Shown in pieces: positions 5,890 to 22,776 of a stretch of 32,083 bases of DNA; positions within the stretch are counted from its first letter, which is position 1, and each line of letters begins with the position of its first letter. The position numbers and the translations under genes are program-made. The DNA is from Minisyncoccota bacterium (GTDB lineage Bacteria; Patescibacteriota; Minisyncoccia; Moranbacterales; GCA-2747515), in NCBI GenBank assembly GCA_938044295.1, contig CALIRC010000010.1, positions 1 through 32,083 on the forward strand, in the 5' to 3' direction. A model generated the notes under the pieces. It ran no database searches. It worked only from the letters and a program-made list of their open reading frames with translations, and had not been told where the DNA came from.

Positions 5890-6093
5890 ACGTCCAAGGT
5901 AGGAGCGGTACGCGCGATGCGCAGGAGCGACAAAAAGGTAAGAACGAGAGGTTCGCAGGCGATTAAAAAAAAGAAGTGCAAAAACAAAGAACTTCTCACA
6001 AAAGCGATCTAGATACTTCTTATATTGTATTTTATACGGTGGTAAAGTCATCGTAATTTGACAAGTAATAGCACGTCACATATTCCAAGGAGA

Positions 6094-6128
6094 AACAAAA
6101 AATGAGCCAACCAACTAGTGGTTGCTCA
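6094..6128 (-). terminator. intrinsic-terminator hairpin in the leader or orphan transcript upstream of the L,D-transpeptidase
   Basis: Minus strand reads TGAGCAACCActagtTGGTTGGCTCA followed by TTTTTTG. No minus-strand gene ends here. Confidence 0.55.
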
Positions 6129-6155
6129 CCCATTTGTATTTCCAGTAATAAAACC

Positions 6156-6184
6156 ATTATAGCATGATTTTTTACTCTCGTCAA
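6156..6184 (-). promoter_or_regulatory. sigma70-type promoter TTGACG-17 nt-TATAAT on the reverse strand
   Basis: Plus-strand CGTCAA at 6179..6184 and ATTATA at 6156..6161, with an exact 17-nt spacer. Confidence 0.6.
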
Positions 6185-8989: not shown

Positions 8990-9601
8990 ATGAACAAAAA
9001 AGTAAAAAATCCAAAAATTGCAAAAGATCGTAAAAAGTATAGAAAACGCGTGATGATTGGTGGTGCTCTAGGTGTTGTATCTTTGGCAACTACAGGAATC
9101 GCAAATGCACATCTCGGGAACAACCCAGAGACGCGACAAGCAGTAAAAGCGGCATTTGAAGCCAAAAATTACAATGCCTTCATGGAAGCTGCAAAAGACA
9201 CAAAAATCATTGAAAAAATTGATACCCAAGAGAAATTTGATAAAGTCATCGAAGCGCATGTACTAAGAGAAGCAGGAGATCTCGAAGGAGCAAAAGCGAT
9301 CAAGCAAGAGCTCGGTCTCGATGGTCACGGTCACCGCGGAAAGAAAAATCCAGCAGCAAAAGCAGCTATAGAAGCAAATGACTATACTGCATTTCGCGAG
9401 GCTATAAATGGCGGAAAATTCAGTGAAAAGATTGACAGCGCAGAAAAATTTACCAAACTTGTAGAGGTGAACGAGCTCAGAGCTCAAGGCAAACACGAAG
9501 AAGCAAAAGTAATCATGAAAGAGCTAGGGTTTGAGAAATCAGGGCATGGAAAAAAAGGTCACCATCGCACACATACCAGAGGAACAACACAATCAGAATA
9601 A
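8990..9601 (+). CDS. secreted helical protein with two ~70-aa tandem repeats and His/Gly/Lys-rich spacers
   Basis: Signal-like N-terminus (VMIGGALGVVSLATTGIANA). Two repeats beginning NPETRQAVKAAFEAKNY and NPAAKAAIEANDY end in GHGHRGKK and SGHGKKGHHRTH respectively. Confidence 0.75.
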   Translation: MNKKVKNPKIAKDRKKYRKRVMIGGALGVVSLATTGIANAHLGNNPETRQAVKAAFEAKNYNAFMEAAKDTKIIEKIDTQEKFDKVIEAHVLREAGDLEGAKAIKQELGLDGHGHRGKKNPAAKAAIEANDYTAFREAINGGKFSEKIDSAEKFTKLVEVNELRAQGKHEEAKVIMKELGFEKSGHGKKGHHRTHTRGTTQSE

Positions 9602-9929: not shown

Positions 9930-10559
9930 ATGAAAGATGTAGATTTTTGGAAGTATGCCTTGAAGCATTTAAAGGATGAAAAAGTGCAATTGTGTTTTAA
10001 ACCTAATAAATTTTCATTGAGAGGTCTTCGTGCACTTAAAAACTCTGGTTTGCAGTGCAGCAAGCAAGCAGTAGGTGCTGTAGCAAAAGAATTGAAGAAG
10101 AAGAAACCAAATGCTTTATATTGCTGTCTGAATGTGCATAGTTGGGAAAATGTGTCAGATCAAGATTTGAACAGGATTATTGGATGTTGTCGCTCTATCC
10201 ATGGACATTCTTCAGAATTTCTACATTTTTCCGACGATCGCAAGGAAAGGATAAATGCAGGTAAGAATATCAGCAATAGGATTTTGCACTACAAAGACTG
10301 GGAAACAGTGGGTGAGTGGGGATACAGGTGTGCTATAGAGGTCACGTGCAATGATTTTGGGGCAATCGTTTTTGTGCTAACAGTGAGTCATAAAGATCGA
10401 TCTTCACAAGTAGAGGATATGATCGTGCAATTGGATAGTGTGACAAGAAAACTGACAAATTCCTATACGAGAACGGTGAATGAATGTGTATACCTGCCTA
10501 AAGTTGTAGAAATAGTCTTAGAGGTTATCGAGGCTAGAGAAAATAATAGGACTGTTTGA
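9930..10559 (+). CDS. hypothetical cytoplasmic protein, Cys/His-rich, no recognised family
   Basis: 209-aa ORF preceded by a strong Shine-Dalgarno sequence (GAGGAGGG, 7 nt before the ATG) and followed by a terminator. Confidence 0.7.
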   Translation: MKDVDFWKYALKHLKDEKVQLCFKPNKFSLRGLRALKNSGLQCSKQAVGAVAKELKKKKPNALYCCLNVHSWENVSDQDLNRIIGCCRSIHGHSSEFLHFSDDRKERINAGKNISNRILHYKDWETVGEWGYRCAIEVTCNDFGAIVFVLTVSHKDRSSQVEDMIVQLDSVTRKLTNSYTRTVNECVYLPKVVEIVLEVIEARENNRTV

Positions 10560-10621
10560 TTTTGCAAAAAAGTGAGTGTATGATTTCGATAAAGTAAGTA
10601 AGAATGAGTACACACGGTAAG

Positions 10622-10650
10622 ACTGCGTATGAAAATATTACGCAGTTTTT
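10622..10650 (+). terminator. rho-independent terminator
   Basis: ACTGCGTAtgaaaatatTACGCAGTTTTT. Confidence 0.8.
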
Positions 10651-10764
10651 AAATACTGAGCACTCATGTAAAATAGATCATCATTTTTATTTATGTTACA
10701 ATAATACTCGTAAAAGCAAATATGGAATGCTTATAAATCTTAAATGAAAGGGGGTGCACACATT

Positions 10765-11076
10765 ATGGAAGGATTCAAAAATTTTTTAGCAGAGCAAGGT
10801 GTAGTCGGTCTCGCAGTTGGCTTCATCCTCGGTGGAGCTGTGTCTGATCTTGTTGCGTCAATCGTTGAGAACATTCTCAATCCGCTGATAGGAATCGCAC
10901 TCGGTGATACAAACCTCGATGCAATGGATCTATCTCTCGGAGGTGAGGCTGTGTTGAGTTACGGAGCTGTATTAACCGTACTGATCAACTTCATCGTCAT
11001 TGCAGCGTTTGTCTACTGGGGTGTAAAAAAACTTGGACTCGACAAACTAGACAAAGAAAAACCAGAAGACGCATAA
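10765..11076 (+). CDS. mscL: large-conductance mechanosensitive channel MscL
   Basis: The N-terminal FKNFLAEQGVVGLAVGFILGGA signature, two TM helices and the size fit MscL. The ATG at 10765 follows AAAGGGGGTG; the track start at 10744 would include that SD. Confidence 0.85.
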   Translation: MEGFKNFLAEQGVVGLAVGFILGGAVSDLVASIVENILNPLIGIALGDTNLDAMDLSLGGEAVLSYGAVLTVLINFIVIAAFVYWGVKKLGLDKLDKEKPEDA

Positions 11077-11113
11077 GCAATAGATGTTATCATCTTTGTA
11101 TGCAAATTTCAAA

Positions 11114-11142
11114 ACTCGTCCACATGGGCGTGTTTTGTTTTT
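11114..11142 (+). terminator. rho-independent terminator of mscL
   Basis: ACTCGTCCacatGGGCGTGT followed by TTTGTTTTT, with one mismatch and one G-U pair. Confidence 0.65.
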
Positions 11143-11247
11143 AAAATACTTAAAAGTAGAGAGATTATAATAAAGAGGGTAAAGATTTATATTGCTATTA
11201 CATCACTATAAGAAAATGTGACACATCTTACAGGAAAAAATGAAGGG

Positions 11248-11276
11248 TTGACTTTTTCTAAGAGAGCTGCTATAAT
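11248..11276 (+). promoter_or_regulatory. consensus sigma70 promoter TTGACT-17 nt-TATAAT
   Basis: TTGACT at 11248..11253 and TATAAT at 11271..11276, with an exact 17-nt spacer. Confidence 0.65.
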
Positions 11277-11282
11277 GATCTT

Positions 11283-11378
11283 ACGATAAAGAACTGGGTG
11301 AAAATGTTTGATTAGAAAAAACATCTTCAAAAGTACAGAAGAAGAAAATTCTAAATGAGCATTTTGCTCATTTTTTTA
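11283..11378 (+). ncRNA. candidate orphan small RNA of about 95 nt
   Basis: Bounded by the consensus promoter and the terminator AAATGAGCattttGCTCATTTTTTT (11353..11378). Internal hairpins are ATGTTT/AAACAT and CTTC/GAAG. The longest ORF is 3 codons. Confidence 0.45.
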
Positions 11379-11949
11379 TTGTCTAAGTACATATTGTTCT
11401 ATCCATTAAAAAAGGGGGAGTGGTAGTCGAAGCTTATAAAGGATATTTAGGGAGCATTATGTACTGGAAGAGTACGTTAAAAAGTAAAACAAAAAGTTAT
11501 GTAACGTAAAGTATGGCGAAGCAATACAACTTACGACATGTAGTATGAGATTGCAGACTCAGTGCAATATCTAAACTGCCATACGCGCCTAGCGCAAGAG
11601 GAGAAAGATCAGGCAGATGGTAATTGTGAAAAGATACAAAAAGAACCATTGATCAATCCATAGGTACTTATAAGTACAAAGTAAGTATAATTGCCAATAA
11701 GCCCGGAGAGAATAAAATGTATTGCATACAGTCAGTGATACAAAAAAGAGAACTGGTTTGTATGTAAAAAGAATGCGCCCTGCACTTCGCATGACCTCAG
11801 TGTCATATGGAAGTCACAGGAATCGCGTGTTATAGAATGATTCGTACAATTTGTGTTCGTGTGCCAGGCAATGGCCAAAATAATTGTCACCTCATAAGCG
11901 TCAAGGACCTTATAGCAAGTCAGTATGCTAAGGATCGAAAAACGCCACA

Positions 11950-12000
11950 GGTGAGTGATGAACGAAACTTTGCTCGTTCTCACTCACCTCCTTCTTTTTA
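11950..12000. other. strong 15-bp hairpin with flanking pyrimidine/T tracts (terminator-like in either orientation)
   Basis: GGTGAGTGAtGAACGAaactttgcTCGTTCTCACTCACC followed by TCCTTCTTTTT. It lies inside the ORF-poor gap. Confidence 0.4.
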
Positions 12001-12272
12001 CTTCCTAAAGTAATATCGATAGGAAAGTTGTGAACGCAAAACATACAGTATGGCATCCTTCTCTGGTTGAATAGCAAGGTACAGTTTGGCATCAGAGATG
12101 ATCTCTGGCTACCGCTTGGTGGGTTTGCGACAATCGCAACTCTCCTTGTATTTTTTTTCAAAAACCGCGTCTACACACATGCTGTGGGGGAGCAGGTAAA
12201 ATCTACCGAGAAATAGTGTTAGAATAATATTGCGCGGTGTACAGGATCACTAAATTTATAATACAATGATAT

Positions 12273-13310
12273 ATGTCTCTAATAACACTCAGACAATTAC
12301 TAGATCACGCAGCAAAAGAAACCTATGCAGTACCAGCATTCAACGTGAATAACCTCGAGCAAGTACAAGCTGTTATGGAGGCAGCTGATGAATGTGATGC
12401 ACCTGTAATCATGGCAGCTTCTTCAGGAGCGAGGGATTATGCAGGGAATGAATTTCTTACGGGACTCATGCGTGCAGCAATAGAAACATATCCGCATATC
12501 CCTGTATGCACGCATCAAGACCATGGACTCTCACCAGAAATGTGCAAAAGCGCAATCGATCTCGGATTTTCATCAGCAATGATGGATGGATCACTCATGC
12601 CAGATCACAAAACACCATCAACCGAACAATACAATGTAAAAGTAACGAAAGAGGTAGTAGAGTACGCACACAAACGCGGTGCTAGTGTAGAGGGAGAGAT
12701 TGGTGTTCTAGGTTCACTCGAAACGCTTATTGCTGGCAAAGAAGACGGAGTAGGCGCCGAAGGTGAGCTCAATGAAGATATGCTTCTGACAAGCGTGGAG
12801 CAAGCGAGAGATTTCGCACAAGAGACAGGCGTAGATGCACTCGCCATCGCCATCGGTACGTCACATGGTGCCTACAAATTCAAAAAACCACCAACGGGTA
12901 AGGTGCTGCGGATTGACAGGCTAAAAGAAATACACGAAGCACTGCCACAGACACATCTCGTCATGCACGGCTCATCAAGTGTGCCACAAGATTGGCTTAA
13001 AACAATTAACGATCATGGTGGTGCAATGCCACAAACCTATGGTGTACCAGTAGAAGAAATTCAAGAAGGTATTGAGCATGGTGTGAGAAAAGTAAATGTA
13101 GACACTGATCTTCGCATGGCCTCAACTGGAGCCATACGCAAATACTTCCACGATGCGCCAGAACAGTTTGATCCCCGGAAATATTTAAAACAAGCGAAAG
13201 AAGCTATGAAAGCAATCTGTATCCAACGTTACAAAGAATTTGGCACTGCAGGTAACGCAAGTAAAATCACACCAGAATCATTAGATGATATGAAATCATT
13301 GTATAAATAA
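12273..13310 (+). CDS. fba: class II fructose-bisphosphate aldolase
   Basis: Full-length match to the class II FBA pattern: [32 protein letters not shown]. Confidence 0.9.
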
Positions 13311-13319
13311 GAGAATCCA

Positions 13320-13526
13320 ATGGACGCGCAAGAACTCAAAAAACGACTCGACGCCCAAGATGCTAAATTAGAAAGCATAGGAAAAGAGGTGCACAAAATT
13401 AAACAATTCTTCCTGTGGTCATTTATCGCAACAATCGTAACATTTGTTTTGCCACTGATTCTTGCTGTGGTTCTAGTACCAATCTTGATAAAACCTTACC
13501 TCAGTTCTCTCGAAGGTTTGATATAG
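13320..13526 (+). CDS. small tail-anchored membrane protein, hypothetical
   Basis: 68-aa ORF starting 10 nt after fba. It has a coiled N-terminal half followed by one long hydrophobic segment. Confidence 0.55.
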   Translation: MDAQELKKRLDAQDAKLESIGKEVHKIKQFFLWSFIATIVTFVLPLILAVVLVPILIKPYLSSLEGLI

Positions 13527-21171: not shown

Positions 21172-21963
21172 ATGTCTTCAAATAATGTAGTGGTAGCAAC
21201 CATGAATGCAGAAAAAGGAAGACTAGGAACTGCATTCATTGCAAATGCAAAAGATTTTTTACAAGAACATCCACTATGTGTCTTAGCATTGCAGGAAGTC
21301 TCTCCGGAAATATTACAAGAAATATGTCGTGAGCAAAATTGGCACATGAAGTTTGAAAAGCGGTGCACATTCAACGGCTTATACCGAGGAAAGCAATACC
21401 ATAATTTTAACCAAGGCATCGGGACAATTTCTACAAATCCAATCCTACACTGTGATGTCTATGCATACGACGAGTATATGCACCCAAAGCTAAATGATTT
21501 TGTGCAGACAGGGAAAGATGATGAAGATGTTGGGATATCGTCACTGTTACACACACAAATTGCATTTGCAAAAAAAAAGCTTGACATATTTAATACGCAT
21601 GGTATTTGGACTGCAAAAGGAGCATCTACAAAAAGGCAGGCTGCAGGTATTAAAAAAATGCTTAAATACCTTAAGAAGTTTAAGTCAGGGGTTGTTTTAG
21701 GTGATTTCAACATCACAAAATACCCACCAAACAAGACCGGTCTCCATGCAGCATATGTCCAGATCACTAAAGCAGGACTCAAAGACTGTCTTCCGGAAAA
21801 CATAACAACAACACTAAATGCAAAACATCATCGAAATGGTAAAAAAACAGATGATGTCATTGTAGACTACATGTTTCAGCTTGGAAATAGCAAGCAAATC
21901 ATGAATGTCCAGAGGATCCAAATACCATCGGATCACTATGGATTACGCGCAACCATTGAATAG
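21172..21963 (+). CDS. endonuclease/exonuclease/phosphatase (EEP) family protein, paralog 2
   Basis: EEP motifs ATMNAE, LALQEV, NTHG, LGDFNIT and PSDHYGL. The ATG at 21172 follows GAGGAG at 6-nt spacing. The track start at 21121 overlaps a TTGACA box. Confidence 0.8.
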   Translation: MSSNNVVVATMNAEKGRLGTAFIANAKDFLQEHPLCVLALQEVSPEILQEICREQNWHMKFEKRCTFNGLYRGKQYHNFNQGIGTISTNPILHCDVYAYDEYMHPKLNDFVQTGKDDEDVGISSLLHTQIAFAKKKLDIFNTHGIWTAKGASTKRQAAGIKKMLKYLKKFKSGVVLGDFNITKYPPNKTGLHAAYVQITKAGLKDCLPENITTTLNAKHHRNGKKTDDVIVDYMFQLGNSKQIMNVQRIQIPSDHYGLRATIE

Positions 21964-21984
21964 ATAAAGAAAGATCTTCAAATA

Positions 21985-22018
21985 GAAGTACTACTAAATC
22001 AGTAGTACTTCCTTTTTT
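21985..22018 (+). terminator. rho-independent terminator
   Basis: GAAGTACTACtaaatcaGTAGTACTTCCTTTTTT. Confidence 0.8.
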
Positions 22019-22032
22019 AAAGGAACAGTAGC

Positions 22033-22061
22033 TTGCATAAACGAAAGATCTAGGTTATACT
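22033..22061 (+). promoter_or_regulatory. promoter TTGCAT-17 nt-TATACT for the L33-L28 unit
   Basis: Hexamers at 22033..22038 and 22056..22061 with an exact 17-nt spacer. Confidence 0.6.
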
Positions 22062-22096
22062 AGTCTCCACGTACAAAAATTATCTAATTTTAACTT

Positions 22097-22276
22097 ATGT
22101 CACAAGATAACCTAATACGTCTAGTCTCTACTGGAGATGAAGACGGCGTCGGAGAGGGTCATACGATCTGGGCGCACAAAAACACCAAAAAACTCCGCAC
22201 AGTAAAACTTGCATTGAAGAAATTCAATCCAATTGCTAAGAAGCATACAATCTACAAAGAAAAGCCAAAAAAGTAA
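22097..22276 (+). CDS. rpmG: 50S ribosomal protein L33 (Cys-less form)
   Basis: Hand-found 59-aa ORF, just below the track cutoff. MSQDNLIRLVSTG...HKNTKKLRTVKLALKKFNPIAKKHTIYKEKPKK aligns to the L33 pattern with the four Zn-ribbon Cys positions replaced. Confidence 0.8.
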   Translation: MSQDNLIRLVSTGDEDGVGEGHTIWAHKNTKKLRTVKLALKKFNPIAKKHTIYKEKPKK

Positions 22277-22368
22277 ATGAAGAATAAAGTGTTACAGAAA
22301 AAAGTGTTCTAAATAAAGGGCCTGTAGCAAATAAAATCTCAAACTCTAAATCGCAAATCTCCATCAAT

Positions 22369-22614
22369 ATGTCACGAAATTGCACCATAACCGGCAAAGG
22401 CACTGTGTCTGGACAAAATGTCTCGCATTCTCAAGTTAAAACAAAGCGAAAATTTAAGGCTAATATCCAGAACAAGCGCTTACTCAACCCAGCAACAGGT
22501 AAGATGATGCGCCTAAAAATTTCTACAGCTGGACTCAGAACACTTAAAAAATGGCAGGCAGCAGGGAAAAAGTATGACTTGCGAAAACTCATCAAAGACA
22601 GCAACAACAGCTAA
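22369..22614 (+). CDS. rpmB: 50S ribosomal protein L28
   Basis: MSRNCTITGKGTVSGQNVSHSQVKTKRKFKANIQNKR... is the canonical L28 N-terminus. Confidence 0.9.
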   Translation: MSRNCTITGKGTVSGQNVSHSQVKTKRKFKANIQNKRLLNPATGKMMRLKISTAGLRTLKKWQAAGKKYDLRKLIKDSNNS

Positions 22615-22624
22615 GCTAAAGTGC

Positions 22625-22650
22625 AAAAACACCTAACCATGGTGTTTTTT
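22625..22650 (+). terminator. rho-independent terminator
   Basis: AAAAACACCtaaccatGGTGTTTTTT. Confidence 0.8.
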
Positions 22651-22776
22651 GTTAATATGTTCTATAACGATGGCATCAAAAAAGGTAAAGCAACAATTAT
22701 TTTTTACTGTCAATTGACGTAATTTTTCTCTGTGATAAAGTTGCACTATATACATTATTACATTAACCGTATCGCT

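Follow-up and report, generated by a model that had tools for sequence, protein, structure and literature searches.

Between the mscL and fba genes of a Minisyncoccota bacterium (order Moranbacterales; GenBank assembly GCA_938044295.1) lie 1196 nt in which all open reading frames (ORFs) are at most 83 aa long and overlap one another on both strands. What is this stretch: a non-coding RNA, the debris of lost genes or DNA that came from elsewhere? The window analyzed here is the whole 32,083-nt stretch of contig CALIRC010000010.1 (C10) from an assembly of 1.24 Mb in 135 contigs that is 96% complete. The original prediction, made from the letters of the window, had singled out about 900 nt of this gap (11379-12272) as apparently non-coding and had offered as candidates a large structured RNA, a decayed gene or prophage remnant, and a regulatory or architectural region.

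Composition of the mscL-fba gap

The genes that flank the gap are readily recognized by Pfam searches, which confirmed mscL (10744/10765-11076) and identified fba (12273-13310) as the gene for a class II fructose-bisphosphate aldolase, with two GH130 genes downstream. The two proteins encoded 5' of mscL (8990-9601 and 9930-10559; 203 and 209 aa) belong to no Pfam family; the 203-aa protein has a signal-like N-terminus followed by two similar halves. The distance from the mscL stop codon (11076) to the fba ATG (12273) is 1196 nt, as originally stated, and it appears to be the longest part of the window that is free of genes, since of the other long gaps one (21963-22732) carries L33-like and L28-like ORFs and another (2094-2667) a 69-aa ORF. 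The gap is not unique in this genome: with a crude gene caller, 42 internal gaps of at least 900 nt were counted genome-wide.

The gap is not a single element but a composite of a conserved promoter followed by a hairpin, orphan filler DNA, a gene relic and the upstream spacer of fba. The spacer (12217-12272, plus strand) contains a -10-like TATAAT (12257-12262), and the promoter scan flagged a weaker promoter-like site at 12238-12267. It has no Shine-Dalgarno sequence, and the TATAAT box ends 10 nt 5' of the ATG; judging by this layout, the fba mRNA may be leaderless or nearly so.

A gene relic upstream of fba and a missing gene cluster

Orthologous fba genes were found in four relatives (73-80% amino acid identity), and in two of these, genomes of the same genus (G002 and G003), a multi-pass membrane protein of about 205 aa is encoded directly 5' of fba. 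Amino acids 146-192 of the 204-aa protein of G002 align in frame with window positions 12043-12183 (tblastn; 68% identity over 47 aa, E 1.9e-17), and amino acids 157-212 of the 213-aa protein of G003 align with 12043-12210 (43% identity over 56 aa, E 5e-10). The frame is that of the ORF at 12067-12216, and a coding score with 3-nt periodicity that was trained on this genome gives positive values for mscL, for fba and for 12040-12183. Relative to fba, the fragment has the same position and strand as the gene in G002 and G003, with its stop codon 56 nt 5' of fba, compared to 88-93 nt for the intact gene in G003 and G002. These alignments identify the segment 12043-12216 (plus strand) as the evident 3' relic of a gene of this family, consisting of the last 57 or so codons and the stop, with the 5' part absent. 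The description of the gap as apparently non-coding thus fails for this segment, which is a gene remnant by both tblastn and frame match.

The DNA alignment with the relatives begins near 12043, and the sequence to the left of this point, where an in-frame stop lies just upstream of the relic, is unalignable. Amino acids 1-145 of the protein have no similarity in this genome in any frame or at the DNA level; given that the relic itself is well kept, this suggests that the 145 codons at the 5' end were removed rather than decayed in place. The differences between the relic and G002 are distributed over codon positions 1, 2 and 3 as 12, 11 and 27, which suggests that most of the divergence accumulated under purifying selection and that the truncation is young. 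Two features originally listed as structural fall inside this remnant: the hairpin with a T8 tract at 12124-12160 exists (z -3.1) but is part of the coding relic, and of the two reported occurrences of GGGGGAGnnGGTA, the one at 12186 is present, with its GGGGGAG motif, the second in the interval, also within the relic, but the one at 11414 has a spacer of one base instead of two.

The relatives also show what else is missing. In G002, the gene order is mscL, the promoter with the hairpin leader, a gene for a 255-aa protein, a giant gene, the gene for the 204-aa protein, fba and two GH130 genes; the giant gene is split over contigs C75 and C15, which overlap inside it. The core layout of G003 is the same, and the flanks in G002 match those in the window. 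Between the flanks, the relatives have about 7.6 kb, with genes for a 255-aa protein, a surface protein of about 1950 aa and the membrane protein of about 205 aa, compared to about 0.66 kb here. The giant protein contains a DUF2341 domain (Pfam), and the 255-aa and about 205-aa proteins belong to no Pfam family. The 255-aa, 1957-aa and 1252-aa proteins had no match in the 96%-complete genome (tblastn, E <= 1e-3), and the sole match of the 205-aa family in this genome is the relic. By this comparison, the cluster of about 7.6 kb has evidently been lost from this assembly. The proposed decayed gene is accordingly real for the right-hand 174 nt of the gap only, as a truncated and not a frameshifted gene, and the missing 7.6 kb fit this interpretation. 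A metagenome scan with Fba returned 80 loci, all with at most 69% identity and thus less related than the same-genus genomes, which made them useless for synteny.

A conserved promoter and hairpin leader

At the other end of the gap, the promoter scan found a sigma-70-type promoter (11248-11277, plus strand) that consists of TTGACT, a 17-nt spacer and a TG-extended TATAAT, matches 11 of the 12 consensus positions and is the best site in 10600-12400. From the predicted start at about 11284, it would produce a leader or small RNA (11284-11381, plus strand) with a long hairpin; the terminator scan places an intrinsic terminator stem at 11353-11373, followed by T8, and in the predicted fold the A-rich 5' end of the leader pairs with the U-tract of this terminator.

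Window positions 11235-11386 can be aligned with G003, G002 and G024. Of the 301 genomes of the order, 7, from three genera and two families, contain the pattern TGCTATAATG-N8-13-RAAGAANNGGGTG, each a single time and on one strand; the reversed pattern, searched as a control, gave 0 matches across the 301 genomes. The -35 box, the spacing and TGCTATAATG are kept in all 7 carriers (the other six loci are L126, L127, L004, L129, L130 and L131), and the consensus of the unit is a G-run, TTGAY, 17 nt, TGCTATAATG and then a long hairpin that includes both an A-tract and a U-tract. The leader transcript is predicted to form one long hairpin, of about 32 to 110 nt, in all 7 (z -2.8 to -8.5); the genes that follow it in one family are unrelated to those in the other. 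As far as comparative sequence analysis goes, the unit could be a small RNA, an attenuator or a terminator cassette, and perhaps one that is undescribed. The proposed regulatory region is borne out for this promoter and hairpin (11248-11381) only, to the left of where the originally singled-out stretch starts.

Intrinsic terminators with an upstream A-tract act as bidirectional terminators. The leader and its six relatives resemble these in the predicted pairing between an A-rich tract at the 5' end and the U-tract at the 3' end; unlike them, the leader follows immediately on a consensus promoter of the same strand, and promoter and leader are conserved together as a single-copy unit in two families, before unrelated genes. 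We rejected the possibility that the leader is the signal recognition particle (SRP) RNA, given that its apex is the least conserved part and that it is only about 32 nt long in one family.

Two further TTGAC-17-TGCTATAATG promoters are present in this genome (G000), one in the window at about 6060-6164 on the minus strand and one on contig C61 at about 2055-2130; both have a short hairpin and a T-run within about 25 nt, the same architecture as 11248-11381. In G024 (L004, 1524-2223), a small Cys-rich membrane ORF with a CCxxC motif and a gene for a membrane-anchored glutaredoxin-like protein lie downstream of the leader.

Filler DNA without detectable relatives

The middle of the gap, about 655 nt (11387-12042), had no detectable relative in any of the searches that we made. 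When the syntenic mscL-fba regions are aligned, the promoter with its hairpin and the relic are conserved but 11387-12042 is without counterpart. Sensitive blastn and tblastx searches against 121 fetched loci (L001 and L009 were left out because they are the window itself) and against the genome's own sequence gave no real match, and blastn of the body (11379-12042) against 29 other genomes of the family (3 from the same genus and 26 others) found two low-complexity matches of 27 nt only. With the 255-aa, 1957-aa, 1252-aa and 93-aa proteins as queries, nothing credible was found in 11379-12042 (tblastn, word size 2, E <= 10). We therefore rejected the origin of the filler from decayed neighbor genes, for which both these searches and the comparison with the 121 loci were empty.

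Nor did the search for a mobile or viral origin produce relatives. In distant mode, the filler had no match among 50,697 records of a phage collection (blastn) or among plasmids, an exact 41-mer was absent from genome contigs and viral contigs, and two scans of viral contigs were without relatives. Its ORFs belong to no Pfam family (4 ORFs) and 0 PHROGs families (6 ORFs), a word-index search with the 83-aa minus-strand ORF was empty, and so was the exact look-up of 6 small ORFs in a collection of 15 billion proteins. The prophage remnant of the original prediction finds no backing in these results for phage DNA, PHROGs families and viral contigs. The coding score of the filler is negative in nearly all frames; the exception, which is weakly positive, is the frame of a 68-aa ORF.

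The filler is single-copy in this genome, the inverted repeats of the interval are short and imperfect (the best, at the ends, matches in 12 of 15 positions), and Pfam detected no transposase, integrase or reverse transcriptase in the window; single copy, poor inverted repeats and the lack of transposase and integrase genes speak against a transposable element, MITE or IS remnant. An invertible segment between the arms of the 12-of-15 repeat was rejected because the contig from run X1 (see below) is unbroken across the left arm.

Guide arrays were considered as well. PMC12045711 describes TIGR and CRISPR guide arrays, which occur in CPR bacteria and phages, as units of about 36 nt with two alternating repeats of 8-12 nt. 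The gap is similar to the arrays as described there in being a long gene-free stretch in a small genome of a parasitic-type bacterium with a terminator at its end; in contrast to TIGR arrays, no Nop-domain family was found in the 29 window ORFs scanned (12 of these have no Pfam family at all). There are no tandem arrays in 11077-12272, Tandem Repeats Finder having reported only a 9-nt repeat in 2.1 copies inside mscL, and the direct-repeat families are aperiodic, with 2-3 copies of 10-15 nt. With periodic repeats absent, we rejected a TIGR or CRISPR array.

Predicted structure and known RNA families

The hairpin originally placed at 11950-11988 proved to be strong. It has 10 + 6 bp with one bulge and is followed by a T-rich tail (11949-12000, plus strand); the fold energy of 11949-11989 is -24.6 kcal/mol on the plus strand (z -6.9) and -25.6 kcal/mol on the minus strand (z -4.9). 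A run of five T starts 6 nt past the stem, and the consensus terminator scan does not list the site. Judging by the fold, 11949-12000 is likely to be a terminator, possibly a bidirectional one. The remaining structural elements of the filler fared less well. The 74 nt at 11511-11584 do form the reported fold, but without significance (z -1.78; 10 of 200 shuffles fold equally well), and the palindromes ATTGATCAAT (11648-11657) and GTACTTATAAGTAC (11664-11677) are present but neither is beyond chance, given that perfect palindromes of 10 nt and of 14 nt occur genome-wide at 1.02 and 0.083 per kb, respectively.

As a whole, 11284-12002 is more stable than its shuffles, with z of -5.2 on the plus and -4.7 on the minus strand, compared to a mean of -1.08 (sd 1.8, minimum -4.98) for 12 random 719-nt pieces of the genome, a sample that allows only a rough rank. 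Scanned in pieces of 150 nt, the stretch owes most of this signal to the leader, to the large hairpin and, on the plus strand, to 11550-11749. The predicted fold is unusually stable, but this neither distinguishes between the strands nor decides the matter.

At the gathering score, none of the 4227 models of Rfam 15 matched the window, and a permissive scan of 10900-12450 (E <= 10) gave 11 sub-threshold matches, the best with 26.9 bits against a cut-off of 65, which fall mostly on the terminator at 11353-11381 and appear to be noise around terminators. ARAGORN detected no tRNA or tmRNA in the window. With this Rfam result and a body that is not conserved in 29 other genomes of the family, the large structured RNA of the original prediction is unsupported.

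A survey of the standard RNAs showed that RNase P RNA is present on contig C2 of this genome, tmRNA was detected neither by ARAGORN nor above the Rfam cut-off, and 6S RNA was not detected either. SRP RNA was found neither with RF00169 in this genome and 5 relatives nor with RF01854 in this genome and 4 relatives; the relatives surveyed were G002, G003, G024, G025 and G164, which include 99-100% complete genomes. The tmRNA, 6S RNA and SRP RNA of this order may be too divergent for the models.

Contigs from sequencing runs

Of the words sampled from the stretch, 98% occur in one sequencing run, X1, possibly the source run of the assembly, and about 20% in three runs of a second study (X2, X3 and X4); no run on record as RNA contains the stretch. 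For X2-X4, whose contigs were compared with 10700-13400, the records give no library type. All three runs have free-standing contigs within 11298-11906, which are 98 to 100% identical to the window and differ from it by at most one letter: 11298-11889 in X2, 11306-11603 and 11595-11861 in X3, and 11306-11711 and 11755-11906 in X4. The contigs start 14-22 nt past the predicted transcription start and none continues into unlike sequence; none lies on mscL or fba, although holes in the contig cover carry no evidential weight. In X1, one Logan contig ends at 11909 and the next starts at 11905, with no bridging contig listed, and the contigs of the second study end at or just to the left of this point. 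This cover could reflect either an abundant transcript or a separate DNA unit.

A probable scar of gene loss

Taken together, these results are best explained if the mscL-fba interval is a composite scar of gene loss, produced mostly by ordinary gene decay, a reading to which we assign a probability of roughly 55%. With the layout of the relatives as an ancestral-like reference, the first two genes of the cluster and the first two-thirds of the third would have disappeared in this lineage, leaving the promoter with its hairpin (11248-11381), the 655 nt or so of filler, the last 57 or so codons of the third gene (12043-12216) and the fba spacer. The filler would have no dedicated function: it may be decaying DNA, perhaps with a dead ORF of about 98 codons, or foreign DNA from a replacement event. 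Its transcription would probably be mere read-through from the retained promoter, stopped at 11950-12000, in which case fba would run from its own nearby promoter.

Pseudogene relics and deletion scars occur in reduced bacterial genomes. The mscL-fba interval is similar to these in having a truncated in-frame 3' fragment in the syntenic place, missing neighbors and no intact copy. Unlike a clean deletion scar, it contains about 655 nt of unrelated orphan DNA, and a strong conserved promoter still points into this filler. A simple deletion would leave no such filler, the origin of which the scar does not explain, and several other observations speak against it: the stability of 11284-12002 (z -5.2 and -4.7), the location of the filler, with the region's best promoter on one side and the very stable hairpin and its T-rich tail on the other, and the contigs of X2-X4 over 11298-11906, the one observation that a silent scar does not predict.

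These same observations are the basis of an alternative that we consider unlikely, namely that leader and filler form a species-specific non-coding RNA of about 620-720 nt that starts at about 11284, reads through the leader terminator and ends at about 11910-12000. The promoter, with 11 of 12 consensus positions and the TG extension, and the strong hairpin with its T-rich tail would open and close such a unit, its overall fold is stable on the plus strand (z -5.2), no frame is clearly coding, and the contigs of X2-X4 begin just past the predicted start and end without running on. Furthermore, in the minimum-energy fold, the 5' arm of the leader pairs across the terminator stem, which could allow read-through; however, the internal terminator at 11353-11381 looks competent. 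The minus strand is nearly as stable (z -4.7) and one of the 12 random genome pieces reached z -4.98. There is no Rfam family even at E <= 10, and the body is absent from the 3 same-genus and the 26 other genomes of the family, leaving no covariation to test. The contigs, for their part, come from libraries of a type not on record. The comparison with the large bacterial non-coding RNAs in Rfam, such as OLE, GOLLD, HEARO, ROOL and raiA, is similarly divided: the locus shares with them a length of about 600-700 nt, the lack of a coding signal, a strong predicted fold and the bracketing by promoter and terminator, but it matches no Rfam model and has no homolog in related genomes, so that the conservation and covariation that define a family are absent. 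Homologs with compensatory changes were not found for the body in the 29 other genomes of the family, in which only the 98-nt leader is conserved.

Loss and transcription could also be combined. In this scenario, which we regard as doubtful, a young RNA was born in the deletion scar, and the conserved promoter, of housekeeping strength, that in the relatives serves the leader and the surface-protein operon would now drive an abundant, structured orphan transcript. If true, such a transcript would explain why three runs of the second study contain just the piece 11298-11906.

It is quite improbable, in our judgment, that the segment at about 11298-11906 is a separate DNA entity, such as a small mobile or foreign cassette or a part of one, that replaced the lost genes and occurs in other contexts elsewhere. 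The identical sequence in the free-standing contigs of the second study and the break of the X1 Logan contigs at 11905-11909 would fit such an entity, as would the filler's lack of relatives in the genus, which is expected of imported DNA. The 12-of-15 inverted repeat, with arms at 11268-11282 and 11903-11917, lies near both ends of the segment but is no better than 20 other pairs by chance-level criteria, and the contigs of different runs end 8 to 45 nt apart, which is not the pattern of a fixed repeat boundary. The segment is single-copy in this genome, Pfam found no integrase, transposase or reverse transcriptase in the window, and phages, plasmids and viral contigs yielded no match. Moreover, an insertion does not explain why the segment begins within the leader, which has homologs at the syntenic place in the relatives.

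Finally, the only filler frame with a positive coding score could point to a small orphan protein, either the 68-aa Cys-rich ORF at 11807-12013 or a form of about 98 aa that preceded two stop mutations, and a Shine-Dalgarno-like GGAGAG (11705-11710) does lie 8 nt 5' of an ATG (11717) in the same frame, with the terminator-like hairpin at the 3' end of the ORF; however, this score is low (1.6 to 3.5 per 96 nt, compared to 5 to 18 for real genes), two in-frame stops (11765 and 11792) separate the GGAGAG and ATG from the ORF, no Pfam or PHROGs family was found, the 15-billion-protein collection contains no gene call with this exact sequence, and phmmer of the frame 11630-12013 (stops as X) against 1.84 billion proteins gave a single match, which we judged spurious, to a tandem-repeat protein that matched 29 residues eight times, all of which makes a protein-coding filler very improbable. 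A dead orphan ORF of about 98 aa (11717-12013, plus strand) in the filler is possible.

Implications

As a scar of gene loss, the mscL-fba interval would be a clear and datable case of a very small genome that sheds a large surface-protein operon and keeps its promoter. It would also be a caution that long, apparently structured intergenic stretches in such genomes can be debris. Should the filler instead prove to be an abundant RNA, the locus would be a rare instance of the de novo origin, within one species, of a large non-coding RNA. The conserved, single-copy promoter-hairpin unit is perhaps the more general object to follow across the order.
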